Positions 27,650-57,834 of a stretch of DNA of 64,000 nt are shown piece by piece (position 1 is the stretch's first letter; each line of letters begins with the position of its first letter). Position numbers and translations under genes: made by a program. The notes beneath the pieces were generated by a model that was not told where the DNA came from, did no database searches, and saw only the letters and a list, made by a program, of their open reading frames with translations. Source of the DNA: a virus. The stretch is from positions 64,001 through 128,000 of the IMG/VR virus record IMGVR_UViG_3300044739_000018. The stretch is one strand, 5' to 3'.

Positions 27650-27669
27650 GGCTACCCCGAAGGGTAGCC
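27650..27669 (-). terminator. 8-bp hairpin with cUUCGg loop between the RAMP operon and the array
   Basis: GGCTACCC-TTCG-GGGTAGCC on minus strand; terminator or processing signal. Confidence 0.6.
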
Positions 27670-27705
27670 CGTCACGTTCAGCCTTTCAAGAGCAAGTTCT
27701 TTTCC

Positions 27706-27912: not shown

Positions 27913-28100
27913 TCTTCCCTTGCCTTCTCCAGCGTCTGGCCCTCCGACTTGCTGCCGAACCTGCGGGCAGGGTCATCGGGATCGGGGAAGACCCCGCAAC
28001 GACCACACCGCCCGGACCCATGGAATCGCACGATGGGCCAGACGGTGCAGTCGCACGCGATGAAGTCGATCCCGAAATCATCGAGCGGGTACTCGGCCAT
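27888..28100 (-). CDS. small zinc-finger protein
   Basis: ATG overlaps the RAMP stop; CDC...CGRC. Confidence 0.55.
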   Translation of the reverse strand: MAEYPLDDFGIDFIACDCTVWPIVRFHGSGRCGRCGVFPDPDDPARRFGSKSEGQTLEKAREEWQRKRRR

Positions 28101-35828: not shown

Positions 35829-36010
35829 GTCTGAAATCTAAGTGGTGGGTCCACCAGGATTATCCCTTTCGCTGCTCATCCACGTTTGAGGGCTGCGCTC
35901 CACGGTTCAGCTAGCTATCTTGCCGTGGACAGCCTTGACACGCGTACTGCTGCTACTCAGTACCTGGACCTCGGAGATCAACCCGCGGTCTAGTTGAACC
36001 TACAGACCCG

Positions 36011-36083
36011 CGCCCTCCCTCGGATTCGAACCGAGAACCTACGGCGTTAGAAACCGCTGCTCTGCCAGTTGAGCTAGGAAGGC
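36011..36083 (-). tRNA. tRNA with CTA anticodon (amber suppressor)
   Basis: Canonical cloverleaf; GCGGT-TTCTAAC-GCCGT. Confidence 0.85.
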
Positions 36084-36647: not shown

Positions 36648-36719
36648 TGGAGCGCACGGAGGGAATCGAACCCTCGCCCCCGGCCTTTAGAGGGCCTAGA
36701 CCTGACCAACAGCGCGCGC
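36648..36719 (-). tRNA. tRNA(CTA), pyrrolysine-tRNA-like shape
   Basis: GCGCGCG/CGTGCGC-T-CCA; tiny D arm CTG-TTGGT-CAG; loop CTCTAAA; T arm GAGGG-TTCGATT-CCCTC. Confidence 0.75.
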
Positions 36720-40332: not shown

Positions 40333-40691
40333 GATGAGAACGTCGACCGTAACTTCCACAAGTATCAATCACAGTTTTCCCAACGGACGTTGAGCATTCT
40401 GACCGCGTACGAGAAAACCTACCGTCCTGATCTGTCCGGCATTTCCCTCAGAAAATCCGTGCAGACGGAAAACTTCTAGAGGCTTGACATGCAAGACATG
40501 ACATCTGATGCACTTTGGGAGCGTTTGGAGACAGCCATCGAAACCGCAATCTTGGCGCGCCGTCGAATGAATCTTGCAACGCCGGGCACCAAGGAGGATG
40601 ATGTGGCGGCCGCCATCGCCTTCAAGACGAAGTGCAAGGCGCACGTGGCCCTCATCAAGCTCATCGACGGAGAAGCAGCTACCCCACAACC

Positions 40692-41198
40692 ATGAACACT
40701 GCACAGAAGAAACCGAAGGAGCTGAACCGTGAACGTCGTCGCACGCGCCGTTGCTACGACCATCTATACGTTGCTCCACTCTGGGTTGCCTTCGAGGCGA
40801 ACCTCGGAACCCTCCTCAGGACTTGCGATGCTGTGGGGGCGTGCATGGCCCTTCCGAGCACGCCGTACTATCGCCAAGCCCTTGCTCGCGGTCGAACCCT
40901 CAACGGGAAGCAGACCTGCGTCCACTGGGTCCAGAAGGGCACCTACGTCGAGTCCATGAAGGGCAAGGCCCGCATCATCGGAGTCGAACTTGCCGATGAC
41001 GCAACGATGTTGGGCGACGTGCGGCCCGCACGGGAACGCACCATCGTCTGCCTCGGACATGAGCACGAAGGTCTTCCGGCAAAGGTCTATCCGCTGCTGG
41101 ACGAGGTTGTGGAGATCCCCATGATTGGCGTGGGTAGCAGCCTTAACGTTGCCGTCGCAGGGTCCCTTGTCTTGTACAAGTTGAGCGGCTTGATCTAA
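40692..41198 (+). CDS. SpoU/TrmH-family RNA methyltransferase
   Basis: NLGTLLRTCDAVG, LGHEHEGL, IPMIGVGSSLNVAVA. Confidence 0.92.
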   Translation: MNTAQKKPKELNRERRRTRRCYDHLYVAPLWVAFEANLGTLLRTCDAVGACMALPSTPYYRQALARGRTLNGKQTCVHWVQKGTYVESMKGKARIIGVELADDATMLGDVRPARERTIVCLGHEHEGLPAKVYPLLDEVVEIPMIGVGSSLNVAVAGSLVLYKLSGLI

Positions 41199-41924: not shown

Positions 41925-42656
41925 ATGAGTGACACGCTCCCCGAGCCTGAGGTCGATCTCATCGACGAGGCTCTTGACCAGATGAGGGAGGCGCTGTCCC
42001 ACGAGGACATCCTGATCGCCTTTCTCCTGGATCGCTCTGGCAGCATGGCCTCGATCCGCACAGCGACCATCGACGGCTTCAACGAGTTCAAGGGCGAGCA
42101 GTCCAAGAACCCTGGCAAGGCATGGGTCTCGCTCTATCAGTTCGACACGCAGTACCAGACGGACTACGAGATGGTCGAGATCGCGAAGACTCCCTTCCTC
42201 GATGAGACCACCTTCGTGCCCCGTGGAGGCACTGCTCTCTACGACGGCATCGGCCACATGGTCACGCAGGTCGAGAACAGCCTGGCGCAGATGCCGGAGA
42301 AGCCCGGCTCCATCCTCATGGTCATCATGACGGACGGCGGCGAGAACAGCAGCACTGAAATGACTGGGCCTGCCGTCAAGACGATGATCCAGGACAAGCA
42401 GAAGGAAGGCTGGGACTTCGTGTACCTCGGCGCCAACGTGGACGCGTTCCAGGAGGCTGCCAAGGTCGGCATCCCCAAGGGCTTCGCTGCTCAGTACGCG
42501 TCGACCCGTGCCAGCACGCAGGCTGTGTACGCCGCCTCGTCTGTCGGCACCACGACCATGCGTTCCACTGCGCGCAAGAAGGGCGCATCGCTCACGTCGA
42601 GCGGCGTGGACTTCTTCGCCTCCGAGACCGACACGAGTGACGCCAAGGACGAGTGA
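41925..42656 (+). CDS. von Willebrand factor A domain protein
   Basis: MIDAS LLDRSGSM, GGTALYDG, MTDGGEN. Confidence 0.9.
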   Translation: MSDTLPEPEVDLIDEALDQMREALSHEDILIAFLLDRSGSMASIRTATIDGFNEFKGEQSKNPGKAWVSLYQFDTQYQTDYEMVEIAKTPFLDETTFVPRGGTALYDGIGHMVTQVENSLAQMPEKPGSILMVIMTDGGENSSTEMTGPAVKTMIQDKQKEGWDFVYLGANVDAFQEAAKVGIPKGFAAQYASTRASTQAVYAASSVGTTTMRSTARKKGASLTSSGVDFFASETDTSDAKDE

Positions 42657-43123
42657 ACCTCCCGACCGGGCGTGATCTAAAGCACCTTCGGTCGTGCATC
42701 CGAGACGCCAAAGAGTTCTCGACGTGCGCGAAGGCGCAGTACTTCTCCGTGATCGTGGACACACACGACTACGTGATCGGCACGGGGTACAACGGAAGTC
42801 CGAAGGGCATGCCTCATTGCACGGATGGGGCGTGCCCTCGGGCGCTCAACCAACCGCCATCAGGCGGTGGGTACTCGGACTGCATCAGCATTCACTCCGA
42901 GGCCAACGCTCTCCTGCACAGCAACTACACGCAGCGGCGGGACGGCGGGACCCTCTACATCAATGGCCGACCATGCTGGGATTGCGCCAAGCTGATCGCG
43001 AACAGCGGTCTGAGGCGAGTTGTCGCTCTCGATGACGGCAGCAAACGTGACTATCCCAAGGTCGATGACTTCCTGGATGAAGCGGGCATCGCCCTCATCC
43101 TCGTGACCCCGGAGGAACTGTGA
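42653..43123 (+). CDS. dCMP/cytidine deaminase
   Basis: GTGYNG, IHSEANAL, PCWDC. Confidence 0.92.
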   Translation: MNLPTGRDLKHLRSCIRDAKEFSTCAKAQYFSVIVDTHDYVIGTGYNGSPKGMPHCTDGACPRALNQPPSGGGYSDCISIHSEANALLHSNYTQRRDGGTLYINGRPCWDCAKLIANSGLRRVVALDDGSKRDYPKVDDFLDEAGIALILVTPEEL

Positions 43124-44595: not shown

Positions 44596-44678
44596 GGGTC
44601 GGTATGCAAACGGTGAAGCAAGCTGGCTGTAAACCAGTGACGTAAGAGACGTTGGGGGTTCGAATCCCTCCTGGCCCA
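44596..44678 (+). tRNA. tRNA-Tyr(GTA)
   Basis: Cloverleaf with long variable arm. Confidence 0.92.
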
Positions 44679-44803
44679 CAAATCCGACGAGAACCTCGCT
44701 GTTGTGAGACAAACTGTTGTAGCAGGACCGTCCGTGAGCCGGAGGTTATAGGCCCGGACATAGAGGCGGTCTACGCGACCAGGAGGTCACTCATCGGAAG
44801 CAT

Positions 44804-44877
44804 GCTCCACTAACTCAATTGGCTAGAGTACCTGCCTCTTAAGCAGGGAGTTCAGGGTTCGAGTCCCTGGTGGAGTA
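44804..44877 (+). tRNA. tRNA-Lys(CTT)
   Basis: CCTGC-CTCTTAA-GCAGG. Confidence 0.93.
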
Positions 44878-44880
44878 CGA

Positions 44881-44951
44881 GCAGGAAGTTCCGGTTCAAT
44901 TCCGGAGGCCGTGGCGCAAGCCAGGGTTTGGTGTAACGGCAGCACACCTGC
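44881..44951 (+). ncRNA. circularly permuted tRNA-like RNA (YrlA-like), copy 1
   Basis: Order: GCAGG, T arm, acceptor stem capped by GCAA, D arm, CCTGC. Confidence 0.7.
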
Positions 44952-44960
44952 GTTGTTCAC

Positions 44961-45034
44961 GGTCCTATAGATCAGATGGTTAGATCGCTACCCTGTCAAG
45001 GTAGAGGCCGCGGGTTCGAGTCCCGTTAGGACCG
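44961..45034 (+). tRNA. tRNA-Asp(GTC)
   Basis: CTACC-CTGTCAA-GGTAG. Confidence 0.93.
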
Positions 45035-45295
45035 CGCAAGTAATGGTGAAGCTGAACTGAAGCTCGCAGAGGGAACTGGACTGTGAATCCAGGGCCACCA
45101 GTCTGGAACGAGCCGAAGGAATGCCCAAGCCTTGCTCCGCCAGTCGTCGGCCGACTGACATGCCTGTGATGACATATTGGGCTTCATGCCCTCGGGACCA
45201 CCAGCGATAGCCGATGGGCGTCCTAAGCTGATGTGCCGAAATACCCGCCCAACTTCTTCGGGAGTTGGGATTGCGCCTTGAAGCGCAGCAGTCTA

Positions 45296-45370
45296 GTCTC
45301 GATGGTGAAATGGAGATCATTGCGGTCTACGAAACCGCCGTTAGAGGTTCGAATCCTCTTCGAGACGCCA
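45296..45370 (+). tRNA. tRNA-Arg(ACG)
   Basis: GCGGT-CTACGAA-ACCGC; CCA. Confidence 0.92.
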
Positions 45371-45376
45371 CCACAC

Positions 45377-45453
45377 GTCGATGTAGCTCAGCCGGACAGA
45401 GCGCGGGCCTCCGAAGCCCGAGGCCAGAGGTTCGAACCCTCTCATCGACGCCA
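45377..45453 (+). tRNA. tRNA-Arg(CCG)
   Basis: CGGGC-CTCCGAA-GCCCG; CCA. Confidence 0.93.
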
Positions 45454-45842
45454 TGAAGATCCAAGGTTGGCTCGACTGGTTCCGCGAGCACGCTTTGCCC
45501 AGGGACACGTTCATCGAGAAGGTGACCGACCACGTGGGCAACGTCAGCCGGACCCGTGAAACCAAGATCAAGGTTCCTCGCCGTGCCCGCATGGACGAGA
45601 TCGACAAGCTCCTGGCTGCGGCCAAGGGCGTGAAGCTCGATACCGAGATCATCGTTCCGGCCCATGCCGTGGCTGCGGAGGGGGCGACAACGACGATTCA
45701 GATGAATTGCGCTGACTGCAACGAACGTTGCAACGGAAGCGTGAAGACTTCCTGGCTCACCAGTCAGGCAGCAGGAGATCTAGTGAGGTGGCAGTGCGCC
45801 AAGTGCGGACTGGAGCAGTTTTGCAGTATCACGCCGCAGTAG
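45453..45842 (+). CDS. hypothetical zinc-ribbon protein
   Basis: CADC...CAKC; ORF between tRNAs. Confidence 0.6.
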   Translation: MKIQGWLDWFREHALPRDTFIEKVTDHVGNVSRTRETKIKVPRRARMDEIDKLLAAAKGVKLDTEIIVPAHAVAAEGATTTIQMNCADCNERCNGSVKTSWLTSQAAGDLVRWQCAKCGLEQFCSITPQ

Positions 45843-45905
45843 CGTCAACGGTTAGCGCGCGTCCTTGGTACGGACGAAGTTCAGGTTCGATTCCTGACTG
45901 TGGCT
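45833..45905 (+). tRNA. tRNA-Thr(GGT)
   Basis: CGTCC-TTGGTAC-GGACG. Confidence 0.9.
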
Positions 45906-46038
45906 CTCGGAGTGTCGGGTACCAGTGATGGCCCGAAGCGACCTGCCCCCAAAGTACCGGTTGAGGGGACGGTTGTATCGAGCACTCCTATCCCGGGTGG
46001 TGGCGGGCTGGTAGCTCCAGCCCGCTGCTTCCCATCAC

Positions 46039-46110
46039 GTCTCTGTAGTTCAAAGGAAAGAACACGAGTTTCCTAAACTTGCGATGGGGGTTCGAGTCCT
46101 CCCAGAGACG
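46039..46110 (+). tRNA. tRNA-Arg(CCT)
   Basis: CGAGT-TTCCTAA-ACTTG. Confidence 0.92.
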
Positions 46111-46423
46111 CTCAAGCCAGTGGATGCCATCATGCCGTTGGAAGGGAACATCCGGCTGCGTAGTAGCCGTCCTGAAAGACGTTCGTGCGGGCATCGGCGG
46201 GTTCGACCCCCGTAGCTTCCACAACGAGGGAGCTTGCTGCCGGTGCAGCCCTGGCACATTGTATTTCGAGCGGATAGTGCCGATCTTTAGGTGAGCAGAT
46301 CACCCCAGACCCTGGTGATTGGACTGGGGAATCTGTGCGCTATCGACACTACGAACTCAAGACGATCTTCATGGTTGCCTTTGTGGCCTTCGTAGTCATC
46401 AACCTCGTAATGGTGGTGGCTAT

Positions 46424-46834
46424 ATGAGCGGTGAAACCGAACAGCAGGTCAGTGGGTGGACAGTTGACACCCTGAATGAGCACCTCCAGCGCATCATTGA
46501 TGAGAAGCTGGCAGCTCAGGACGTGCTTATTACGGAGCGCGACCGCCGTTACGAACAACGCTTTGAGGCCCAAGAGAAGGCCATCCAGAAGGCGGAAACC
46601 GCGACCGAGAAGCGGTTCGAATCGGTCAACGAGTTCCGATCCGTGCTTTCGGACCAGACGAGGAGCTTCCTCCCTCGTGAAGAGTACAATCGTGCTCACA
46701 CAGATCTGGCTAGCCGGTTGGATGAGGCGACCAAGAGTACCAACGAGAAGTTGGAACAGGCCGTGAAGACCCTTGAGAGTCGCATTGCCTCTCTCCAGCA
46801 GCAGCTCAACGCCGTCGAAGCGGTGGTGAAGTAA
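46424..46834 (+). CDS. coiled-coil hypothetical protein
   Basis: Heptad-rich; followed by two TM-bearing ORFs (46834-47052, 47049-47393). Confidence 0.65.
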   Translation: MSGETEQQVSGWTVDTLNEHLQRIIDEKLAAQDVLITERDRRYEQRFEAQEKAIQKAETATEKRFESVNEFRSVLSDQTRSFLPREEYNRAHTDLASRLDEATKSTNEKLEQAVKTLESRIASLQQQLNAVEAVVK

Positions 46835-47594
46835 TGCCCGTCGTGACCTTGGGGACGCTGGCCGAGAAGCTGATCGCTGCCCAGACTGGCATTGACCAGA
46901 TCCAGGTAGAACTCAGGAAGGTCAACGAGCAAGCTCTTGACCGGCGAGTCTCCAAGCTGGAAGACACCGTAAAGTTCTTGAGCCGCACAGTCGCCGCCAC
47001 GCTCATTTCGGCCATAGGGTCGGCCATCCTCGCGGTGGTGATGTCCCGATGAACGAAAAAATGGATGAGACAAAGGCGGACTCCCGCTTCAATGGAGTGC
47101 GTGTCCTCGTCACCGCCATCATTGTCGGCGTATTGGCCGTGGCGGTATTCGTGTCGGCCAGCCTCCTGACGAGAGTGCCGAAGAACGCTCAGGATCTCCG
47201 AGAGCGGTGCGTGTCATCAAACCTGGCGATCCAGCAGTTCAACACCAAGTTCTCGCAGTTGGTTGACTTGTTCGACCAGTCGCTGGCAAACCCGGACCCG
47301 AACAGGCCACCGCCGTCGCCGGAGGTCCTTGCTCTTTACGCCGAGTTCAAAAAGCCCGTCCCTCTCATCAAGTGCGAGGACGACGGCCGCTAAGTTTTCG
47401 TGAACCCAAGCTCAGTAGGCAGAGTAGCCTTCAGGGGCCGGAGGTCGTGGGTGGGATTCCCACCGAGTCCATCATGAGTCGTCACTCGGGTGTAGCGCCG
47501 CCAGGCTGCCTACAGTGACGGTTCATCGTGGGGTCGTAGCTCAGTACCCAGAGCACCGTCTGGAACCTACGAAAGTGCGGGTAACACAACACCT

Positions 47595-47677
47595 GGAGAG
47601 ATACCCAAGTGGTGAAGGGGACGGTTTGCTAAACCGTTAGGTCGAAAGGCGCGTGGGTTCGAACCCCACTCTCTCCG
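47595..47677 (+). tRNA. tRNA-Ser(GCT)
   Basis: ACGGT-TTGCTAA-ACCGT; long variable arm. Confidence 0.93.
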
Positions 47678-47755
47678 CGCTGGTGGGTATGCGGACTATA
47701 GGCGTGCATGCGCGCTTGGTCGTCCCGGCGCCGGGATGGCTGCCCACCGGATTCT

Positions 47756-48023
47756 TGAGATAGCCGGGTGACCGCGGCACGACTTGATCGTGTCGAGGAA
47801 GGTCGGGACTCCACAGGACGAGGGAGCCAACGAGAGTTGGGCGGGCGTGAGCTTGCGGCTCTGCAACAGAGACGAGCCGGTTAAGTCCGGGTGAAACGGG
47901 CAACCCCCTGGAGCAACTTCATACAGAGGTCGCTGGTCCGGCGATAACCTCGGGTAGAAGGCTTAGATGGATGGTCACCGCGCTACATGCTGGCGTACAG
48001 AATCCCGCCTACAAGCTATCTCA
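47756..48023 (+). ncRNA. rnpB: RNase P RNA (compact)
   Basis: P1 TGAGATAGC/GCTATCTCA; CR-I GAGGAAGGTCGGGA pairing with CR-V ACAGAATCCCGCCTAC; GCAACAGAGA and GGGTGAAACGG elements. Confidence 0.9.
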
Positions 48024-48030
48024 GTATCTC

Positions 48031-48117
48031 GGAGCGATGGCAGAGTCTGGTTGATTGCACCTGCCTTGAAAGCAGACGTGGGGTAACTCACCGGGGGTTC
48101 GAATCCCTCTCGCTCCG
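48031..48117 (+). tRNA. tRNA-Ser(TGA)
   Basis: CTGC-CTTGAAA-GCAG; long variable arm. Confidence 0.92.
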
Positions 48118-48272
48118 CTCGCCAACGTTCGTTGGCAAACCCGTACTCATTCCTAGTACCGCTACGCAATGTTAGTCCTCGTAACTATCCGCCTGGCTGA
48201 CCTGCGGTTTTAACGTCCTCCCACCTGTTCAAACGTGTGGCCGGTACTAGACATGAGTACATGACTCACCTC

Positions 48273-48356
48273 GGAAGGCATCCGAATTGGAGAGGAACCC
48301 GCCTCGAAAGCGGGCACGGTGTAACAGCCTTGTGGGTTCGAGTCCCACGCCTTCCG
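48273..48356 (+). tRNA. tRNA-Ser(CGA)
   Basis: CCCGC-CTCGAAA-GCGGG. Confidence 0.92.
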
Positions 48357-48385
48357 CTTTGACAACCCGATGTGACAGAGCAGTC

Positions 48386-48456
48386 TGTATCGTAGCTCAG
48401 TTGGATAGAGCGCCGCCCACAAGGCGGAGGTCGCAGGTTCGAGTCCTGCCGAACAC
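48386..48456 (+). pseudogene. tRNA-like gene with 5-nt anticodon loop
   Basis: Intact D and T arms; CCGCC-CACAA-GGCGG; bulged acceptor stem. Confidence 0.65.
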
Positions 48457-48492
48457 TGGAACTCTCGAATGTGCGGGCGAGTCAATAACCTC

Positions 48493-48838
48493 GGGGCTGA
48501 CAGGTTTCGACGGTGCAAGTGAAGCTAGGAGTGCGACCGGTCTTGGGCAGAGACCTAAAACGGCCTACCAAAAACAAACGACAACGACATCGTTGCCGAG
48601 GCAGAGGCCGTCCTGGCTTCTGCTGCTCTCGCTACTGTCTGACAGTAGCTTGCGGGGAAGCCCATCCTTGAGATCCAAACGGGCATGTGACATGACTCTC
48701 AGGAAAGACTGAGTGGCGCTCCGTGAAATGCGGGCTGACAGCCGGAAAGACGGCACACTGGCCCGACAGTAAACGGGAATGGTCGTATCACAAGTAGTGA
48801 ATCTGCAACGGACGTGGGTTCGAATCCCACCAGCTCCA
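48493..48838 (+). ncRNA. ssrA: tmRNA; tag (A)DNDIVAEAEAVLASAALATV*
   Basis: 5' GGGGCTGACAGGTTTCGAC; 3' GGACGTGGGTTCGAATCCCACCAGCTCCA; G3-U wobble; tag ORF 48580-48642. Confidence 0.93.
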
Positions 48839-48840
48839 CG

Positions 48841-49058
48841 TGTATGCGCAACGAAAGGTTGGCTTAGAGGCAGCCATCCTATAATGAGTGGGGTAACGGT
48901 CCATCTTGGCAGTAGCTGGGGTGGACCTCCGGGCAATACCGTTGGAGACAGCGAGTACGTCCGGGATCAGGTACGTGGGGACTAGCCTGCCCATCGGTAA
49001 CCGCTTTCTCCGTTCCTCGGAACCGCCCTTTGGCGTAATAGCACATCCTTGCGTGACA
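48841..49058 (+). ncRNA. candidate 23S rRNA L11-binding-domain (H43/H44) mimic with internal insertion
   Basis: AGGTTGGCTTAGAGGCAGCCATCCTATAATGAGT ... GCGTAATAGCACA, closed by TGCGCAA/TTGCGTG. Confidence 0.65.
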
Positions 49059-49063
49059 CACCT

Positions 49064-49146
49064 GGAGAGGACCCGAACGGTCAGGAGCCTCGTTGGAAGC
49101 GAGGTACGGGTGCAAGCCCTAGTGGGTTCGACCCCCACCCTCTCCG
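49064..49146 (+). tRNA. tRNA-Ser(GGA)
   Basis: CCTCG-TTGGAAG-CGAGG. Confidence 0.9.
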
Positions 49147-49509
49147 CTCCACATAGCGGGACGACAACTAATCGCGTTACAGGAAGTCGTTCTGCACGAC
49201 CAAGGAGGTGAGTGAAGGTTATCAGCACCTACATCCGGTGGCATCAAGCTTCCGTTTGGAGCCTTCTCTCACACCGCAACCTGATCTGAAAGTGGTACGA
49301 CCGGCCCGACAAGAGGCTACCCTCCTCAGCGTCCCGCCTCCCTGGCTCGGTGCCCGCATGCGTGCGGGCTTACCTGCGGTGTGATTCCTCAGGTGAGAGT
49401 GGTCGTGAATCCACGTGATTTGACGGTAAGCCAACGCTCGTTGCAGTGAGAACGTGGCTTCGCAGGAACAAGATGTCGGAATGCTGAACTGGCCGTGACG
49501 GTGCAGTCG

Positions 49510-49580
49510 TTGGGATTCGTATATCGGTAGTACACCCGGCTTTGAACCGGGTGGAGTGGGTTCGACTCCCGCATCCCCCC
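49510..49580 (+). tRNA. tRNA-Gln(TTG), weak acceptor end
   Basis: CCCGG-CTTTGAA-CCGGG. Confidence 0.75.
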
Positions 49581-49629
49581 TTGAACGGAGACTGAAACAC
49601 CTGATCCAAAGGTAACAGCGTTCCATCAT

Positions 49630-49703
49630 GCCCCCATCGTTTATGGGTAGGACATCAGCCTTTCAAGCTGATAGACAGGGTTCGAGTCCCTGTGGGGGTA
49701 CCA
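49630..49703 (+). tRNA. tRNA-Glu(TTC)
   Basis: TCAGC-CTTTCAA-GCTGA; CCA. Confidence 0.93.
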
Positions 49704-49704
49704 A

Positions 49705-49775
49705 GGCGCATTAGTTTAGTGGGAAAACAACTGGTTCTCAGCCAGTCGTCAGGAGTTCGATCCTCCTATGCGCTA
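49705..49775 (+). tRNA. tRNA-Glu(CTC)
   Basis: ACTGG-TTCTCAG-CCAGT. Confidence 0.92.
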
Positions 49776-50053
49776 CTCATAGCAACGGCTCCGTGGCTCC
49801 TCCATCGGTACACCCGATGAGAGGGGGTGAACGTGCCCAAGTATCACAGAGTAACGGGAGCCACCCGCTGCTATGTCTGCGGCCAGCGTCTGACGCTGAC
49901 CGACTATGACGACGGCGATGAGGTCATCGCTAGTCACATAGACAAGACTCACATGAGAGTCATCAAGGCTCTCATTCGTTTCGCCCGCTCCTAGCTGGCG
50001 GCCCGGCGACACCTGCCGTAAGTGGTGTGACGTGGGGGAGAGACCTCATCCAT

Positions 50054-50130
50054 TGCCGGGTAGCTCAGATAGGCAGAGCAGCCGCCTGTTAAGCGGAAGC
50101 GCGTGGGTTCGATCCCCACCCTGGCAGCCA
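50054..50130 (+). tRNA. tRNA-Asn(GTT)
   Basis: CCGC-CTGTTAA-GCGG; CCA. Confidence 0.93.
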
Positions 50131-50131
50131 T

Positions 50132-50206
50132 GGGACGATAGCCAAGTGGTAAGGCGACGGATTGCAACCCCGTCATTCGTCGGTTCGATTCCGACTCGTC
50201 CCTCCA
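50132..50206 (+). tRNA. tRNA-Cys(GCA)
   Basis: Loop TTGCAAC; T discriminator plus CCA. Confidence 0.92.
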
Positions 50207-50359
50207 TGTGATACAGAACCCGATCCTGACCTAGCAGGAGCAGTCGCCGCGGGGTCCCCCATGTATCCACAAACTGAGAGATACTATTCAGAATGTGGAT
50301 AGATGGGGTCCTCCGGTGGAGGACTGAAACTGGTGATGGTAGGGTAACTGTCTCAACTT

Positions 50360-50432
50360 GTGCGTGTAGCTCAACTGGCAGAGCACGACGTTGCCAACGT
50401 CGAGGTCGAGGGTTCGAACCCCTTCACGCACT
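50360..50432 (+). tRNA. tRNA-Gly(GCC)
   Basis: CGACG-TTGCCAA-CGTCG. Confidence 0.93.
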
Positions 50433-50437
50433 CGCAT

Positions 50438-50510
50438 GCGGGAGTGATGTCAACGGTTAGCATCTCTGCCTTCCAAGCAGATCGTGCCGGTTCGAATCCG
50501 GTCTCCCGTT
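50438..50510 (+). tRNA. tRNA-Gly(TCC)
   Basis: TCTGC-CTTCCAA-GCAGA. Confidence 0.92.
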
Positions 50511-50511
50511 C

Positions 50512-50540
50512 TTGACGCTGGCACCGGCGTGTCATAAAAT
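50512..50540 (+). promoter_or_regulatory. near-consensus sigma70-type promoter
   Basis: TTGACG-17 nt-TAAAAT. Confidence 0.75.
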
Positions 50541-50685
50541 GGGCGTTGGCGGAGAAGCCTACGGGGCGACTCCGAGTGTAATCCGATCAGTCGAACCTCA
50601 GCCTCACGGTGAAGGCCCACTACTTACTCAAAGCCGGAACCTAAAGGCGGGCACCGTAATCGGGTTGCCGCGCAAAGAAAGTACC

Positions 50686-50711
50686 GAGAAGGGGCCGCAA
50701 GGCCCCTTCTC
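50686..50711 (+). terminator. terminator-like hairpin
   Basis: GAGAAGGGGCC-GCAA-GGCCCCTTCTC. Confidence 0.65.
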
Positions 50712-50715
50712 ACTA

Positions 50716-50790
50716 GCCTTCGTGATGTCAACGGCAGCATTCCTGTCTTGTAAACAGGTCGTGGCGGTTCGAATCCGTCCGGAGGCTCCA
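50716..50790 (+). tRNA. tRNA-Thr(TGT)
   Basis: CCTGT-CTTGTAA-ACAGG; CCA. Confidence 0.92.
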
Positions 50791-50927
50791 AGCAGTTGTG
50801 ATGAAGCAGCATGTAAGCCGCCTGGCGGTGGAAACTCGCGGTCCGAATCTCAGGCTGGCAGAAATGCCAAGGGAACGGTGGCACTGGGAGCCGTTGGGGT
50901 GTTGGAACTTCTTGAATGACTGCTCAT

Positions 50928-51002
50928 GGTTCAGTAGCTCAGACTGGTTAGAGCGTCCGGTTGAAACCCGGGAGGTCGTCCGTTCGATCCGGACCTGAAC
51001 CA
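50928..51002 (+). tRNA. tRNA-Phe(GAA)
   Basis: TCCGG-TTGAAAC-CCGGG. Confidence 0.92.
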
Positions 51003-51606
51003 CGCCGATAGAGTCTCATGGCTTCTATCACCATCACCATCCCCGATGCTCAGGTTCAACGAGTGTTGGACGCCTTCAGCCATCGTTACGGCTACCAAGA
51101 CCAGATTGACGGCGCACCAAACCCTCAAACGAAGGTCCAGTTCGCCAAGCAGCAGGTGGCACTCTGGATCAAGCGAGAGACCGAGGACTACGAGCGGGCA
51201 ATCCGAATCGCAGCAGCCGAGGCGGCTGCCATTGCACTCGACGCCACCTGACGTAGAATCAGACCATGTGTGGTGGAGGGAAGTGCAACCCCGATCCTCA
51301 GGTCGCCGCCAGCTTCCACCGCCTGGAGGAGCAGCGTCTGGCTGACATCGAGCGGTGGGGCCAGTGCGAGGAGATCAGCTACCGCAACAAACGGTGCCAC
51401 TACCCAATCGGTCACGACCGCGGGCACCATGCCGGTGACGGAATCACCTGGGCAACGGACGTTGAACATGAGGGCGGCCAGGCGGCAGAGCTGAAGAAGT
51501 TGTTCGAGACGTGCAAGACGATCATCCCCGGCATCGAGCTGCCCGCATGGGTGGAGTTCCAGGCCGACTTGTCTCACCTGGGCTTTCTGCTGGGGATCAA
51601 GAACGA

Positions 51607-51678
51607 GGACGCGTAACTCAGAGGCAGAGTGCCAGGACGACACCCTGGTGGTCATTGGTTCGAATCCAATCGTGTCCA
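51607..51678 (+). tRNA. tRNA-Val(GAC)
   Basis: CCAGG-ACGACAC-CCTGG. Confidence 0.9.
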
Positions 51679-51896
51679 CGCAGCAAAATGCCAACTCAAG
51701 TTGAAGAGGCACCCATACCGAGAGCACATCGTCTTCATAAGACGCCCTGTGCGGATTAAGAGTTTACCAACGGTAGGCTGCTACATCATTGTGTCGATGT
51801 AGTTTGATCAGGACCCTCGGGGCAGGTAGCGCACTCGGCAGATAACCGGGGAGGCGGCCATGGTGGAACCTTGGAAACACGAGCCAAGCACTGCGG

Positions 51897-51966
51897 TGCC
51901 GTGTGATTTGGTAATCAAGGCTGGCTTATATCCAGCCCCTCTCGGGTTCGACTCCCGGCGCGGCTA
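51897..51966 (+). tRNA. tRNA-Ile(TAT), atypical
   Basis: GGCTGG-CTTATAT-CCAGCC; short D loop. Confidence 0.7.
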
Positions 51967-52045
51967 CGTCATGACCTACCTCCGAGAGTTCTCCACAGTG
52001 AGTGGGTAGTGTCGGCAGGAAAACTCGGCTGACTGTCGGCCACTT

Positions 52046-52120
52046 GCGTAACAAGCCAACTAGGTTGGAGGCGCTACCCTGATAAGGTAGATATGCGAGG
52101 TTCGAATCCTCGGTTACGCA
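52046..52120 (+). tRNA. tRNA-Ile(GAT)
   Basis: CTACC-CTGATAA-GGTAG. Confidence 0.9.
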
Positions 52121-52262
52121 CTCAGAAATACGACTGATGCAGCAATAGAAACAGCGACCAGGAGGGGCCTGAAACCCCTTCGGCCTGCCGAGGTCAGCAT
52201 GCGGCTCTTAACCGCCTCGCCCCTCTCTGCTGAAACTGTTGAAGGCGTATCAACTGAAGCAA

Positions 52263-52335
52263 GCCTCTCTGGCGTAATGGATAGCGTGTCGGCCTTTTAA
52301 GCCGGTCGGTCAGGGTTCGAATCCCTGGGGGGGCA
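52263..52335 (+). tRNA. tRNA-Lys(TTT)
   Basis: TCGGC-CTTTTAA-GCCGG. Confidence 0.92.
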
Positions 52336-52343
52336 CTTTTCAT

Positions 52344-52419
52344 AGGCGGGTAGCTCAGAGGCCAGAGCAGCACCCTTACAAGGTGAAGTGCGAGGGTTCG
52401 ACTCCCTCTCCGCCTACCA
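52344..52419 (+). tRNA. tRNA-Val(TAC)
   Basis: CACC-CTTACAA-GGTG; CCA. Confidence 0.93.
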
Positions 52420-52420
52420 T

Positions 52421-52498
52421 GGTGGCCGTAGCTCAGTTGGTTAGAGCGCCAGGTTGTGATCCTGGATGTCGGGGGTTCGAGTCCCCTCGGTCACCCCA
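52421..52498 (+). tRNA. tRNA-His(GTG)
   Basis: G-1; CCAGG-TTGTGAT-CCTGG; C discriminator plus CCA. Confidence 0.95.
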
Positions 52499-53097
52499 TG
52501 AGCACCAAAGTCAAAGAGATCACGTCGAATCCCAACGGGGACCGGCGACGGTGCCAGCTCTGCAATCCAACCCCTGACCGAATTCCACTGGACAAGGTGT
52601 GGGCCTGGTCGCTAGAACATCCAGGAGAACCTTGGAGGCGAAGTGGCTGAGACCCTGACGGACGTTTCCCAGCACTACCGGGAGCGGGCAGAAGTCAGCA
52701 TGTACTGGTGGGACGAGGACGACGAGGTTGCCATGGAGATCGTGCAGGACGCCATGAAGAACCTCATGTTCGCCTTCAAGCGGGCAGGAGTACGAGTACC
52801 GGCCCTGCACGTCACGGGCAGGAAGTAATGGGCGACCCGTTCCGCTGTGGACGTTGCGACACGTGGTTCGACTACTACGAGGCCCTGGAGCGGCACATCG
52901 CGAAGGAGCATCCCAAGCCCTCGGACAAGTCGGTCCTCGCCACCATGCAGTATGAATTGAAGGAGGCGCTGCTTGAAATCCAGCGGCATCATGCCGACTT
53001 CAAGAAGGTCAGTCAGGCCCTCGACGACTACGAGGAGCATGGCGATGCGAAATTGCTTTACAAGACGGTCAGGAGCGTTGTAGGATGATTCCCACGT

Positions 53098-53170
53098 TGC
53101 GGTGGGAGGGGACGGAGACCCTGTCAGGCTCATAACCTGGACTATGCGAGTTCGATTCTCGCCGCCGCTA
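53098..53170 (+). tRNA. tRNA-Met(CAT) with 1:72 mismatch
   Basis: TCAGG-CTCATAA-CCTGG. Confidence 0.85.
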
Positions 53171-53194
53171 CTAAGCAGTACAGCTTAACCTCTT

Positions 53195-53270
53195 GCCGGG
53201 AGGGTGAAACGGTTTCCACGGGGGCCTCATAAGCCTCAGACATGCGGTTCGACTCCGCTTCCCGCCACCA
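53195..53270 (+). tRNA. tRNA(CAT), Met or Ile2
   Basis: GGGGC-CTCATAA-GCCTC; ACCA end. Confidence 0.8.
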
Positions 53271-53428
53271 TCTAAGGGACGCCTCCAAGGAGGTGAGTCC
53301 GATGTAGCAGCAACAACTAACATGCGAAGACACTCAACGGAGTGCCAGGAGTAACTCGGTAACACGGGCGCTGCTCCACAGGTCAATCGGGAGGCCAGGC
53401 CCCGCAAGTCGGGGCCGCTCCAATTCTT

Positions 53429-53504
53429 GGGGACGAAGCTCAGCAGGTTGAGCATCTGTCTGGCAGACAGAAGGTCGAGGGTTCGAATCCCTTCGTCTCC
53501 ACCA
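53429..53504 (+). tRNA. tRNA-Ala(GGC)
   Basis: G3-U70; TCTGT-CTGGCAG-ACAGA; CCA. Confidence 0.93.
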
Positions 53505-53964
53505 TCATGGCATCAGCAACCGAAGGCAAAATCGACGTAGAGGTTACGCACGCATTCTGTATTGACCGTGCAGTCAAGACCTTGAAGTCGGTCTACAAGG
53601 CGGGTTTGAGTGCCGAGATCATCGAGCACACGCTGGCAACAGTGGACCGCTGGTTGAAGATTGCCGCAGAGATCCGAGCGGGTGACGAGCTTGCTAGCTA
53701 CAAGTTCAACGCCCTGAAGAGGCAGTTGGAAGAGGAGAGTATGTAGTACGAACTCGGTGCGGACGTGATTCCGCCACTGCCTTCTGCCAACGCCTGGGCC
53801 GAACCGTGACGAACGGTGACTGCAAGGGAAGGTGCCGACATGGGAACTCCGGCCGGGTTACCTGTGAGCGGATAGAGGGGTCAGTGAAGAAATGACCCGA
53901 TAGGGGAACGCTGTGCCGCGGAGGCGGCGGTCCCTTTCTTATCCATCCTTTATCTCCGCAACAC

Positions 53965-54037
53965 GGGCCTGTAGCTCCAACGGTAGAGCAACTGCTTTGC
54001 AAGCAGAGGGTTGTCGGTTCGAATCCGACCTGGTCCA
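53965..54037 (+). tRNA. tRNA-Ala(TGC)
   Basis: G3-U70; CTGC-TTTGCAA-GCAG. Confidence 0.93.
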
Positions 54038-54042
54038 CGCAA

Positions 54043-54125
54043 GGGCGAGTGGCGTAATTGGCAGCCGCGCTGGTCTTAGGAACCAGTGTCTATATGACGT
54101 GCGGGTTCGAGTCCCGCCTTGCCCA
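54043..54125 (+). tRNA. tRNA-Leu(TAG)
   Basis: CTGGT-CTTAGGA-ACCAG; long variable arm. Confidence 0.93.
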
Positions 54126-54407
54126 CGTGACGGCACGAGCAGGAACAGCAAGGAAGTCCACCGGAGCGGTAGCCAAGGGAGCCACTCGGCGGATATCAGT
54201 AGCTCGCACGGGAGGGTATCCGTGTGGCTTCTGTGGTGGCGGGAAACCGAACGGGCAGCGGTACTGTGCCCAGTGCATTGACGAGTATGCCGACTTCATG
54301 GAAGTCACTGGCATCGACGAGTCACCGCACAGTGCCGACCTCTACAAGCTCTATCGCTTCATGTCTATGAAGGATGAAGTCGAGCGCATCAAAGAGAAGT
54401 ACAGCTA

Positions 54408-54485
54408 GCTGACGTAGCCCAATCCGGCAGAGGCACATGGTTCAGAACCATGCCAGTGGAGGTTCGAGTCCTCTCGTCAGCACCA
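54408..54485 (+). tRNA. tRNA-Leu(CAG), short variable loop
   Basis: CATGG-TTCAGAA-CCATG; CCA. Confidence 0.9.
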
Positions 54486-54486
54486 A

Positions 54487-54562
54487 GCCTCTGTAGTGCT
54501 AATGGTTATCACGTCGGTTTCGTAAACCGAAGGACTCAGTTCGACTCTGAGCAGAGGCTCCA
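54487..54562 (+). tRNA. tRNA-Thr(CGT)
   Basis: TCGGT-TTCGTAA-ACCGA; CCA. Confidence 0.9.
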
Positions 54563-54563
54563 C

Positions 54564-54646
54564 GCGAACGTGGCGGAATGGTATACGCGCTAGGTCGAGA
54601 GCCTAGTGCCCGCAAGGGATTGAGGGTTCGACTCCCTCCGTTCGCA
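54564..54646 (+). tRNA. tRNA-Leu(GAG)
   Basis: CTAGG-TCGAGAG-CCTAG; long variable arm. Confidence 0.92.
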
Positions 54647-54961
54647 CAAATCGTTGACCCGCTCGCCCTCCAATGTTAGGGTCAGGTTCAACTGAACCTC
54701 AAGACCATGGAGGCGGCGGTGGACGAGTACGTGGCGCTGTTCTGCCCGCACTGCGGCGTGCATCTCAACGAGGTTGAGACGGACGACGAGACCCTGGTTG
54801 CCCTCACTCCTGAGCCTGGGACCAGTGTGAAGTGCGGCCACTGTGGTATCGAGACCGACGACTGGAACCACATCGTCCAGTGCCGTCGCACGCTTGGCGC
54901 TGTGGGGGAGCTTCGGTTCCGTCAGGCGGCTGAGCGTCTTGCCGCTCTGGAGCAAGAGCTT

Positions 54962-55031
54962 GCCCTCGGCACGGAAGCTACGCGGGCCTTCTAAGCCTGT
55001 GGACCGGGTTCGATTCCTGGCGGGGGTGCCA
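54962..55031 (+). tRNA. tRNA-Arg(TCT) lacking a paired D arm
   Basis: GCCCTCG/CGGGGGT-G-CCA; CGGGC-CTTCTAA-GCCTG; T arm intact. Confidence 0.75.
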
Positions 55032-55440
55032 TCATGATTGTCGCACTTCTGCTCGGCCTGTTCTGCCTCATTTTTGGCATCGGGCTTTACTTCGACAGCT
55101 ACACTCACAACTGGTGCGACCTGCACCATTGGGATAGGTGTGAGCAACAATGCTCAGGACGAAGGTGGCGGGGCTGGTGACAGAAACAGAGAATGCAACC
55201 CACACGCTGTTTACCTGGATCACGCCGTCAGGCACTCAGGCTCGGATCAAGGTCGTCCTTGGTGCGGGCACACAGCGCGAGGTGTGGGACATGGCGGCGA
55301 ACGTCTTGAAGTTCGAGATGGTGGACAACCTTCACATGGAGCGCACGAACGGAGATGCTCCGCCCGCCGACGACATCTTCGCCATGTGGATTCAGTTCGC
55401 TATCGCCCACTGCAAGCAGATGAGTGGCGTCGAAGACTAA

Positions 55441-55511
55441 CGGGTCGAGTTGTTACGGAAGCATCCGGGGTTTGGAACCCCGTGGCCGGGGTTCGACTCC
55501 CTGCGACCCGA
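55441..55511 (+). tRNA. tRNA-Pro(TGG)
   Basis: CGGGG-TTTGGAA-CCCCG. Confidence 0.88.
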
Positions 55512-55524
55512 CGTAGTAATGCAA

Positions 55525-55598
55525 CTGGGTATGGCTCAGCTAGGTAGAGCGCCGCGTTCGGGACGCGGAGGCCGTTGGTTCGAATCCAACTACCCAGA
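55525..55598 (+). tRNA. tRNA-Pro(CGG)
   Basis: CCGCG-TTCGGGA-CGCGG. Confidence 0.93.
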
Positions 55599-55962
55599 CT
55601 CACCAGGTAGGTGACACGAAAGGATGCTCACCATGAGCAAGCGCGTGGACTGTAGGGAGGTGCCGCTGATGACCCTGTCGTAAGGGAGGTGATCATCAAT
55701 GGCAGCCAAACAGTCCAACAAGAAGAAGGGTGGCAACAAGCACTCTTCAAATCTTCGTCGGCACGAACGGAAGGCACTTCACAACCGTCGTATTAACTAC
55801 ACGCCCGTTCCCGGCAAGTGCGGTAGCTCGTTCTGCGAGAAGCGCACCGGCTGTGAACCCTGGAAGTAATCCTGGGCACGGCGTTAGCGGTATCTCCTAG
55901 AAACCAACCGGCTCAACGGCTTGGGGCCTCAAATTGGTGGTCCCAGCCGTCGAGACCTGTTC

Positions 55963-56304
55963 ATGCCCTACAAGAATCCGGAAGATCAACGTGCAAGTGA
56001 ACGCCGGTACTATGCAGCACACCGAGAGCAGGCGCTTGAGAAGCAGCGCAGGCATCGAGCGGCGTTGAAGTTGCACGTGAACGGCATCAAGGCGTCCACT
56101 CCCTGCACAGACTGTGGCGTCTCATACCCCTACTACGTCATGGACTTCGATCACGTTCGTGGTGAGAAGATCGGTGACTTGAATCGCCTCGTTGCCACTG
56201 GCCGCAAAGCACTTGTGCTCGCAGAAATGGAGAAGTGCGAGCTTGTCTGTGCTAACTGCCATCGGGAACGAACACATCAACGGGCATTGGCTCAGTTTGG
56301 TTAG
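55963..56304 (+). CDS. HNH endonuclease
   Basis: PCTDCG..MDFDHVRG...CELVCANCHRERT. Confidence 0.9.
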   Translation: MPYKNPEDQRASERRYYAAHREQALEKQRRHRAALKLHVNGIKASTPCTDCGVSYPYYVMDFDHVRGEKIGDLNRLVATGRKALVLAEMEKCELVCANCHRERTHQRALAQFG

Positions 56305-56355
56305 AGCGCCGGTCTGGGGGACCGGAGGCCGCAAGTTCGAATCTTGCATGCCCGA
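56281..56355 (+). tRNA. tRNA-Pro(GGG)
   Basis: CCGGT-CTGGGGG-ACCGG. Confidence 0.92.
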
Positions 56356-56415
56356 CGCAACACTCCTGTCTGTCGCATTCTCGATTGGATGTTCCAATCA
56401 GACAAGGAGGATACA

Positions 56416-56796
56416 ATGAGCATCTACTACAGTCCTGAGGACCACGGTCTTGAGGTCTTTGGAGAGCTTGACGAGCCGAATATGTCCTACGAGTTCCACA
56501 TGCTCGTCGTGTGGCAGTCGAAGGACGGGCGGCTCTGGTATGCAGAGGACAGTGGGTGCTCGTGCCCCAGCCCTTTCGAGGACTGCCACAGCACCGATGA
56601 CCTCATCGAGATCACGCACGCCAGCCTTGACCAGTTCTGGGCCGACGTAAACGACTTCTCCGGCTACAGCAACGAAGGCATCCTCGCCTGCGAGAAGACC
56701 CGGCTTCTCTCTGAGGTGACAAGTGCCTTGCCTCCGCTCGATGTCAGTGGCACCATTGCTGGCTTGGAGCGGATTGCTCGGGACCTCGCGTCCTGA
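56416..56796 (+). CDS. hypothetical phage protein
   Basis: AAGGAGG RBS; DSGCSCPSPFE motif. Confidence 0.7.
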   Translation: MSIYYSPEDHGLEVFGELDEPNMSYEFHMLVVWQSKDGRLWYAEDSGCSCPSPFEDCHSTDDLIEITHASLDQFWADVNDFSGYSNEGILACEKTRLLSEVTSALPPLDVSGTIAGLERIARDLAS

Positions 56797-56804
56797 GCAC
56801 CCAT

Positions 56805-56877
56805 TGGCAGATAGTGTAACCGGCAACACACTTGGCTCTGAACCAAGAGACTCCAGGTTCGAACCCTGGTCTGCCAG
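56805..56877 (+). tRNA. tRNA-Gln(CTG)
   Basis: CTTGG-CTCTGAA-CCAAG. Confidence 0.93.
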
Positions 56878-57193
56878 CTTATGGATGAGTGGAAAGCGGC
56901 AACGTTTATTCCGAACGTGATGGATGAAGCCGTTGAGAGCAAGAATGACGCCGTAAGAGCAGAACTCATCTACTGGCTACATACGACCTGGCCTGAGCAT
57001 TGCCCGTGCAATTCCTGTATCGAGCAGCGAGAGGACATACAGGCCATCGTCGAAGGACGACCACACTCCTACAGCGGAACGAAGGTGCGTCGTGGGCAAG
57101 AAGGTAACATCGACAGCGAAACAAGAGAAGGCAGCACGCCTTCATGAGAAGAAGAAGCTGCGTAAGCAGAAGCGACGTGGTAACCCAAGCTGA

Positions 57194-57325
57194 ATGGGCA
57201 GTTCCGATTAGCTGTGGGGATGCCGGGGTTAGCCTCCCGGCCGCGGGCACAGGCTCGTGTAGCTCAAAGTGGCGAGCACGCAGAGGCGTGGCTGAAACCC
57301 AGGAAGTACGGATCAACCAGTCCAT
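57194..57325 (+). ncRNA. circularly permuted tRNA-like RNA (YrlA/Y-RNA-like), copy 2
   Basis: CTGTG, T-like arm, acceptor CGCGGGC-ACAG-GCTCGTG, TA, D arm GCTC-AAAGTGGC-GAGC, A, CGCAG; imperfect outer stem. Confidence 0.65.
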
Positions 57326-57328
57326 CAT

Positions 57329-57399
57329 TCGGGAGTCGTTTAACGGCAGGACAGCGGGCTTTGAACCCGCGAGTGAGGGTTCGAATCCTTCCTCCCGAG
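57329..57399 (+). tRNA. tRNA-Gln(TTG)
   Basis: GCGGG-CTTTGAA-CCCGC. Confidence 0.93.
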
Positions 57400-57757
57400 C
57401 GTGAATCAAGCTGACCGAGGCAGACTCAAAGAGATCATAGAGCTGGAGCGCGGGCTGACATACAGGGAAGCCGTGCATGCCATCGAGATGCAAGAGAAGC
57501 TCTCAAAGTTGCAGGTCATCGCATCAACCCACGAGAACTTCCCTGAGATTTGCCCATGCGTGGACTGCAAGGAGCAGCGCCATGACCTCAAGGTCATCCG
57601 ATCTCACTACGGATGAGCTGATCGCCTTCGTCCGGCGCAGGATGGTCAACCTGGACGAGTTGGCCCAGTTCCTCCACAACCACTTCCCCGAGGAGTGCCC
57701 GTGCTGGCTCTGCTCTGAGCACAGGCACCAGATCAGGGAGATCAAGCACAAGTACAG

Positions 57758-57834
57758 GCTGGCGTAGCCCAATTGGTAGAGGCCGCGGAGTCAAATCCCG
57801 TGGGTTGTCGGTTCGAATCCGTCCGCCAGTACCA
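57758..57834 (+). tRNA. tRNA-Leu(CAA), short variable loop
   Basis: Loop GTCAAAT; CCA. Confidence 0.85.

Follow-up and report, generated by a model that had tools for sequence, protein, structure and literature searches.

A genuine, structurally intact and streamlined type-A RNase P RNA gene is present at positions 47756–48027 of the window, the 64,000-nucleotide stretch of phage DNA analyzed here. The window represents bases 64001–128000 of a 163,481-bp IMG/VR virus record, a single contig with direct terminal repeats that is rated 100% complete by CheckV. Inspection of the sequence of the record gave a terminal repeat length of 127 bp, and its genes include those for a primase-helicase, a Sak4-like annealing protein, and a ribonucleotide reductase. 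The source is a complete soil phage genome of 163 kb and of the lytic type.

RNase P is the RNA enzyme that trims new tRNAs, and its RNA is counted among the core ribozymes of the cell. The genes known from large phages include those for tRNAs, tmRNAs, and some translation factors. No RNase P RNA encoded by a phage or other virus was reported anywhere in the full-text literature searched, which included a 2024 RNase P review, but many subscription papers lie outside that literature and the result is not proof. The remark in the first-pass annotation that RNase P RNA is rarely reported in phages thus agrees with the literature search, yet such genes proved not to be rare in IMG/VR.

Identity, anatomy, and conservation of the RNA

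Searches of the window and of the whole genome with the Rfam model RF00010 (RNaseP_bact_a) returned a single match, which covered model positions 1–367 with a score of 120.2 bits (E = 3.3e-36), the gathering score of this family being 100 bits. The bacterial type-A model was also the best Rfam family for 47756–48027. A compact RNase P RNA at 47756–48023 had been proposed from the sequence, with a covariance-model search as the suggested check, and this end-to-end match above the curated threshold bears the proposal out; the proposed ends are exactly those of the first to the last P1 pair. The score was the lowest among the full-length RF00010 matches in this analysis, and the RNA was also the shortest. 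Its parts are as follows.

47756–48027, + strand: RNase P RNA gene, type A, 272 nt, as matched by RF00010; P1 is formed by 47756–47764 and 48015–48023
47756–47820, + strand: catalytic domain, 5′ part, with P1, P2, P3, CR-I with the P4 5′ strand, and the 5′ strands of P5 and P6
47821–47909, + strand: specificity domain, with P7–P11, J11/12 ACAGAGACGA, a mini P12, and a fused J12/13–J14/11
47877–47890, + strand: mini P12, 4 bp (CCGG/CCGG) with a UUAAGU loop
47891–47901, + strand: P13/P14 deletion site, GGUGAAACGG joined straight to GCAA
47910–48023, + strand: catalytic domain, 3′ part, with the P5 3′ strand, P15–P17, the 3′ strands of P6, P2, P4, and P1, and the J2/4 hairpin

The secondary structure was drawn by hand and from the Rfam alignment, and comprises P1–P12 and P15–P17, with P4 and P6 as pseudoknots, and a hairpin in J2/4. 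Each of the 77 pairs in the 15 helices, including the two pseudoknots, is canonical, the J2/4 hairpin being an additional element. The helix lengths are 9 plus 1 bp for P1, 7 for P2, 8 for P3 (CUUGA loop), 4 each for P5 and P7, 5 for P8 (GAGA loop), 6 for P9 (GUGA loop), 2 for P10, 3 for P11, 4 for P12, and 4 each for P15, P16, and P17. The P6 pseudoknot has 4 bp (GGAC/GUCC; strands 47816–47819 and 47936–47939). The P4 pseudoknot, flanked by CR-I and CR-V, pairs 47800–47808 (AGGTCGGGA) with 48003–48010 (TCCCGCCT) in eight canonical pairs round the conserved bulged U48. Relative to the usual strands GAAAGUCCGGG/CCCGGCUU, P4 carries compensatory changes, and its change from A-U to G-C also occurs naturally in Actinomycetota and Burkholderiales.

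In the RF00010 alignment nothing fills the 43 positions of P13/P14 or the 24 positions of P18, and P12 and P3 are also reduced; the earlier suggestion that the RNA is short through loss of peripheral helices therefore holds. The features that bind the substrate are retained, namely the GGU of L15 (GGGU at 47952–47955, kept for the 3′-CCA), J5/15 (AGCAA), J11/12, J12/13, the GNRA loops L8 and L9, and a J2/3 of 1 nt. J15/2 lies at about 47961–47965, with no P18, and the J2/4 hairpin at 47980–47996 is followed by ACAGAA and then by the P4 3′ strand.

A covariance model was built from the window RNA and its structure, and 75 other RNase P RNAs (23 viral and 52 bacterial) were aligned to it. Those 75 RNAs have 47 columns with a conservation of 95% or more, 21 of them unpaired, and in every one the window RNA carries the conserved nucleotide; together with the folding of P1 and the P4 described above, this confirms the first-pass view that P1, P4, and the conserved regions are present. 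Against the 16 best-scoring relatives (46–64% identity over model columns), 13–28 pairs had changed on both sides and were still canonical while 0–5 were broken, and against the nearest relatives, at ~ 60% identity, about 20 pairs had changed on both sides with pairing kept. In the whole alignment of 76 RNAs, double changes were seen at 63 of the 77 pairs, and 95.2% of cells were paired, as against 34–49% when the partners were slid by 1–3 columns; the alignment was fitted to the structure, so the pairing figures are somewhat inflated, but the contrast with the slid partners is still large. The covariation that had been noted in P4 was also evident across the 76 RNAs, where the counts at three of its pairs were 52 GC to 17 AU, 36 GC to 32 CG, and 37 AU to 32 GC. 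Compensatory changes with intact pairing at ~ 60% identity argue that the RNA is not a decaying copy, and, as judged from these substitution patterns, its structure is under selection. No close relative of the exact window RNA was recovered among the loci examined.

The tRNA array and the phage genome

ARAGORN found 42 tRNA genes and a tmRNA in the window, and Rfam added one more tRNA at 48386–48456 (43 in total). The features of the array, and the genes elsewhere in the genome that are considered below, are as follows.

44596–57834, + strand: tRNA array enclosing the ribozyme and tmRNA genes, with 38 tRNAs by ARAGORN and one more by Rfam
47595–47678, + strand: tRNA-Ser(GCU), the upstream neighbor (Rfam and ARAGORN)
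47679–47755, + strand: structured 77-nt spacer before the ribozyme, a long closing stem plus two hairpins
48031–48118, + strand: tRNA-Ser(UGA), the downstream neighbor (ARAGORN)
48493–48841, + strand: phage tmRNA (Rfam, 89 bits, and ARAGORN), another class of RNase P substrate
40632–41198, + strand: SpoU/TrmH-like 2′-O-methyltransferase gene, just 5′ of the array
42653–43123, + strand: dCMP-deaminase-like (ComEB-like) gene, just 5′ of the array
16416–17297, − strand: CCA tRNA nucleotidyltransferase-like gene (PF01743, 65.7 bits)
genome 15981–16163, + strand: Pup gene, Actinomycetota type (65 bits), before the window
genome 30739–30936, + strand: WhiB gene, Actinomycetota type (71 bits), before the window
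genome 141322–143091 (L041:13322–15091), + strand: gene for a 589-aa protein with no Pfam or PHROG match

The ribozyme gene lies inside the array, on the array's own strand, 77 nt 3′ of tRNA-Ser(GCU). The tRNA-Ser(UGA) gene begins 3 nt past the Rfam match and 7 nt past the last P1 pair, so that an RNase P cut at this tRNA would set the 3′ end of the ribozyme. The spacer at 47679–47755 has a predicted fold of −41 kcal/mol (z −2.56) and is possibly a processing element. No promoter-like or terminator-like site was found on the + strand between 46257 and 50511 in a scan for sigma-70 promoters and terminators, in which sites were no more numerous than in shuffled sequence. An antisense open reading frame at 47637–47903 had no Pfam match.

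The additional tRNA at 48386–48456 (+ strand) scored 43 bits with Rfam, was missed by ARAGORN, and lies 36 nt 5′ of the tmRNA. The tmRNA has an unusual predicted tag, DNDIVAEAEAVLASAALATV, and the search of the phage genome found no smpB gene. CCA is encoded in about one-third of the tRNA genes, mostly those with the next tRNA 1–7 nt away; about two-thirds lack it, and the phage has the CCA tRNA nucleotidyltransferase-like gene at 16416–17297, whose best NCBIfam matches are CCA tRNA nucleotidyltransferases, under the equivalog cut-offs. Two tRNAs with a CUA anticodon (amber-suppressor type, labeled Pyl by ARAGORN) lie outside the main array at 36010–36083 and 36648–36717, both on the − strand. 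The deaminase gene at 42653–43123 was considered as TadA, but this was rejected as it resembles dCMP deaminase instead. A sharp composition anomaly was seen at 26001–28000 of the window, with a GC content of 0.67 and a GC skew of +0.41.

No PF00825 match, and hence no rnpA, was found in the 163-kb genome; the control search was positive in 10 of 14 reference genomes. Among 14 control genomes the Pup and WhiB families were both found in Corynebacterium only, and since the phage encodes both, its host is very probably an actinobacterium, that is, a member of the phylum Actinomycetota.

The relatives of this phage were sought by several routes. When the locus and a 12-kb phage segment were compared by BLAST with 50,697 GenBank phage records, the only matches were to tRNA-Ser, or there were none, and a protein search with the primase/helicase found no close phage relatives. 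A profile of the 589-aa protein, however, found 77 viral loci. This protein has more than 930 metagenome homologues, some of 850–970 aa with intein or homing-endonuclease domains, a pattern usual for core phage genes. An RNase P RNA above threshold was absent from all 26 records of at least 30 kb related through it, one 14.6-bit fragment being seen; two of these records are rated 96–100% complete and one 88%. This phage group can thus do without the gene, which occurs in it sporadically. The two closest relatives by this protein are 96% and 87% identical, and the contig of one ends ~ 6 kb before the locus, inside the tRNA array.

Cellular and viral relatives of the RNA

RNase P RNA genes were found on more than 40 other viral contigs, often abutting a tRNA. 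A strict CR-I pattern identified 31 IMG/VR loci, 26 of which had an RF00010 match above threshold, many of them on contigs of 39–463 kb and within tRNA arrays, and a search with the 15-mer at the P13/P14-less junction gave 18 further viral RNase P RNAs. A tRNA on the same strand begins no more than 13 nt downstream of the ribozyme 3′ end in 14 of the 25 tRNA-bearing viral loci (window included; 13 of the 24 others), and this recurrence speaks for a ribozyme that is freed by tRNA processing. A cellular origin is probable for several small IMG/VR contigs on which a full-size RNase P RNA is found but no tRNA. Searches with two other viral RNase P RNAs brought up no convincing match in cultured phages. 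An RNase P-like match in the GenBank record 'Microcystis phage MaAM05' was set aside, as its neighbors are fabI, engB, and mtgA and this part of the record looks cellular; the stretch (L163; MW495066.1, 112823–117973) is unannotated in that record.

The viral RNAs in tRNA arrays of IMG/VR (for example L281, L253, L269, L004, L007, and L012) resemble the window RNA in lying on the strand of the array and often abutting a tRNA. Many of them lack P13/P14, and their P10–P12 module is up to 91% identical to that of the window RNA, but their catalytic domains are only 41–59% identical in the model-based alignment, and L281 and L004 keep P18.

Bacterial relatives were sampled by a scan for the unusual P4 5′ strand GAAGGUC and the sample is therefore biased; within it, the top-scoring relatives were Acidimicrobiia and other Actinomycetota MAGs. 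The RNAs of these MAGs (L084, L147, L045, L082, and L109) had the highest similarity to the phage RNA and the top covariance-model scores. They share with it the absence of P18, a compact P15–P17 region, the J2/4 hairpin, the P4 form GAAGGUC/CCCGCCUA, and J15/2 AGAUGGAUGG. They differ in having a long P12 with P13/P14, a length of 343–388 nt, and a cognate rnpA, and their loci gave no tRNA match and do not lie in tRNA arrays. For L084 and L147, from Acidimicrobiia or related Actinomycetota, Rfam alignments showed that P18 is absent while the long P12, P13, and P14 are kept, and both genomes carry rnpA. P18-less bacterial RNAs thus include L084:1952–2310 and L147:2427–2769, and about 10 more in the alignment have a similar compact P15–P17 region. 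In the class of L084, the nearest bacterial relative, 98 of 101 sampled genomes gave end-to-end matches of 323–449 nt and at least 192 bits, and none of the matches in those 98 genomes was as short as the window RNA.

The RNAs of Oxalobacteraceae (Collimonas, Massilia, Undibacterium, and Janthinobacterium) lack P13/P14 and have a short P12 with a UUAAGU loop, as Rfam confirmed for Collimonas. They are like the phage RNA in J11/12 (ACAGAGACGAG), in this UUAAGU-capped P12, and in GGUGAAACG joined to P11, but they keep P18 and their catalytic domains are 47–54% identical to that of the phage. Either P18 or P13/P14 is therefore missing from some cellular RNAs, so that each loss is compatible with service as the sole RNase P RNA of a bacterium, and neither excludes membership of type A. 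The joint loss of P13/P14 and P18 was seen in no cellular RNA examined. As the closest bacterial relatives also lack P18, only the trimming of the specificity domain looks phage-specific.

More broadly, the phage RNA has in common with bacterial type-A RNase P RNA (E. coli M1 RNA/rnpB; RF00010; the T. maritima holoenzyme, PDB 3Q1R) the core of P1–P12, P15–P17, and the P4 and P6 pseudoknots, together with the bulged U of P4, CR I–V, the GGU of L15, and the GNRA loops L8 and L9. It differs in lacking P13, P14, and P18, in its 4-bp P12, in its length of 272 nt, and in its location in a viral genome without rnpA. P13/P14 and P18 are also absent from archaeal type-A RNAs such as that of Methanothermobacter (PMC2615603, PMC4919922). 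These have the same helix complement as the phage RNA, but the likeness is limited to which helices are absent, the phage RNA differing by its bacterial sequence, its bacterial P6, P16, P17, and L15, and its 1-nt J2/3. Archaeal RNase P RNAs work with four or five unrelated proteins (a set of Pop5, Rpp21, Rpp29, and Rpp30). In CPR bacteria the RNase P RNAs lack P13, P14, and sometimes P16, P17, or P18, and lowered Rfam thresholds were needed to find them (Lui et al. 2021, PMC8172020). Those RNAs are the sole essential cellular genes of their kind in tiny genomes, whereas the phage RNA is an accessory viral copy that passes the Rfam threshold.

Two signals are present within the one molecule. 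Over 134 reliably aligned columns of the catalytic domain, the 15 most similar RNAs were 75–81% identical to the window RNA, 14 of them from Actinomycetota and one from a MAG labeled Acidobacteria, while other viral RNAs were 48–60% identical over the same columns. The P10–P12 module, on the other hand, was 91% identical to those of the viral RNAs L281 and L253, in which the mini P12 hairpin is identical, and 71% identical to that of Oxalobacteraceae; the UUAAGU loop with covarying stems was found both in other viral RNAs and in Oxalobacteraceae. A clean deletion of P13/P14 between the conserved flanks of L147 reproduces the junction GGGUGAAACGG-GCAA, and the likeness in the P10–P12 module is therefore partly trivial. 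Recombination was considered as the explanation of the mosaic and was not established, as the simple deletion gives the same junction. The identical mini P12, and UUAAGU on covarying stems, nevertheless go beyond what deletion of P13/P14 explains, and convergence or exchange of the module between phages could possibly account for the likeness of the specificity domains. In trees from the catalytic-domain columns, the window RNA grouped with long-branch viral RNAs (support 0.82–0.97) inside a weakly supported group dominated by Acidimicrobiia. An Actinomycetota-like donor is probable from the identities and shared structural traits rather than from these trees.

P13/P14-less RNAs with a UUAAGU-like hexaloop on covarying stems comprise the viral L281, L253, L269, L003, L251, L280, and L307, and L092, L099, L049, and L091 from Oxalobacteraceae. 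The recurrence of this P12 hexaloop suggests an unrecognized structural role or constraint in specificity domains that lack P13/P14. A wider reading, offered tentatively and rather doubtful at present, is that phages repeatedly capture a host RNase P RNA and streamline it to a 'plug-in' ribozyme. The catalytic half would be kept host-matched so as to take over the host RnpA, and the specificity half, convergent or exchanged between phages, would be a minimal substrate-measuring device with no P13/P14 and a 4-bp P12 capped by UUAAGU. If this were true, the RNA would be a natural mosaic or a case of convergent minimization, and maturation of the phage tRNAs would be partly independent of host rnpB.

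Proposed role of the phage RNA and its significance

What was observed is homology to RNase P RNA, an intact architecture, a structure under selection, the genomic setting, and the lack of rnpA. The favored reading, to which a probability of about 0.75 is assigned, adds that the RNA would be a functional catalytic RNase P subunit that uses the host RnpA to mature the phage tRNAs and tmRNA. The ribozyme would be transcribed within a long tRNA/tmRNA precursor and excised by the same processing that frees the neighboring tRNAs, its 3′ end being set by an RNase P cut at the 5′ end of tRNA-Ser(UGA), 7 nt downstream. It would then bind the RnpA protein of the host, a partner suggested by the lack of rnpA in the phage, and remove the 5′ leaders of the 43 phage tRNAs and the tmRNA, so that processing capacity might be added or kept up during infection. 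The putative CCA-adding-type enzyme, the SpoU/TrmH-like methyltransferase, and the tmRNA of the phage were also counted in favor of a functional ribozyme.

P13/P14 and P18 supply tertiary contacts, and because these helices are missing the RNA-alone activity of the phage RNA may be poor. Archaeal type-A RNAs, which have the same helix complement, show little activity when no protein is present (PMC2615603). The RnpA protein of one bacterial species can replace that of another (PMC4919922), and in engineered archaeal/E. coli chimeric RNAs a J2/3 of 1 nt made the RNA more active with the bacterial protein (PMC2615603).

Other explanations of the gene can be weighed against this reading. The RNA might mainly capture host RnpA, either starving the host RNase P or redirecting the holoenzyme to phage precursors. 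Any function would have to go via the host protein, given that the phage has no rnpA, and the catalytic domain, which bears the protein-binding regions, is closer to Actinomycetota, the presumed host phylum (75–81%), than to other viral RNAs (48–60%), and the specificity domain is streamlined; all of this would suit a sponge or a specificity switch. A pure decoy, however, needs no catalytic or substrate-binding nucleotides, and all are kept, with the L15 GGU, the P6 pseudoknot, and the core of the specificity domain. Such a role is unlikely, although a specificity shift and plain catalysis would be expected to give the same observations as those made here. Less likely still is a host rnpB gene that was captured, lost its function, and is now being worn down by deletions. 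In favor of this stand its length and score, both the lowest among the full-length matches found here, the lack of the gene in related phages, and the likeness of its catalytic domain to cellular Actinomycetota RNAs, but a relic would not be expected to show no non-canonical pair among 77, no deviation at 47 highly conserved columns, and about 20 compensatory changes at ~ 60% identity to the nearest relative, and the deletions cleanly excised entire helices from positions at which these are also missing in living bacteria.

That the RNA is bacterial and not phage, through an assembly chimera or cellular contamination, is very improbable. Such cases do appear to exist, as the small tRNA-less IMG/VR contigs with full-size RNase P RNAs look cellular and an RNase P-like stretch lies amid bacterial housekeeping genes in a GenBank record labeled 'phage'. 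The present gene, however, is found 48 kb inside the window, and the 163,481-bp contig is a single one, rated 100% complete and with 127-bp terminal repeats; phage tRNA genes on the same strand flank it within 77 and 3 nt, and in length and sequence it is unlike all the cellular RNAs examined. Small RNA genes are frequent integration sites of temperate elements, which then carry the displaced end, and an attachment site or duplicated target fragment of host rnpB might be imagined on these general grounds. This would be scarcely credible for a whole gene, from the first to the last P1 pair and not a 3′ fragment, in a genome with terminal repeats and no adjacent integrase seen, and the RNA is only 60–80% identical to any cellular RNA examined.

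If the RNA is the functional subunit favored here, a phage copy relying on a host protein would lengthen the list of translation-related functions that viruses bring with them. Naturally minimized type-A ribozymes would also be of use for structure–function work, the window RNA dropping P13/P14 and P18 together. The finding raises the question of why a phage with dozens of tRNA genes should bring its own 5′-end processing; it might thereby gain capacity, stay independent of host shut-off, or alter the specificity.
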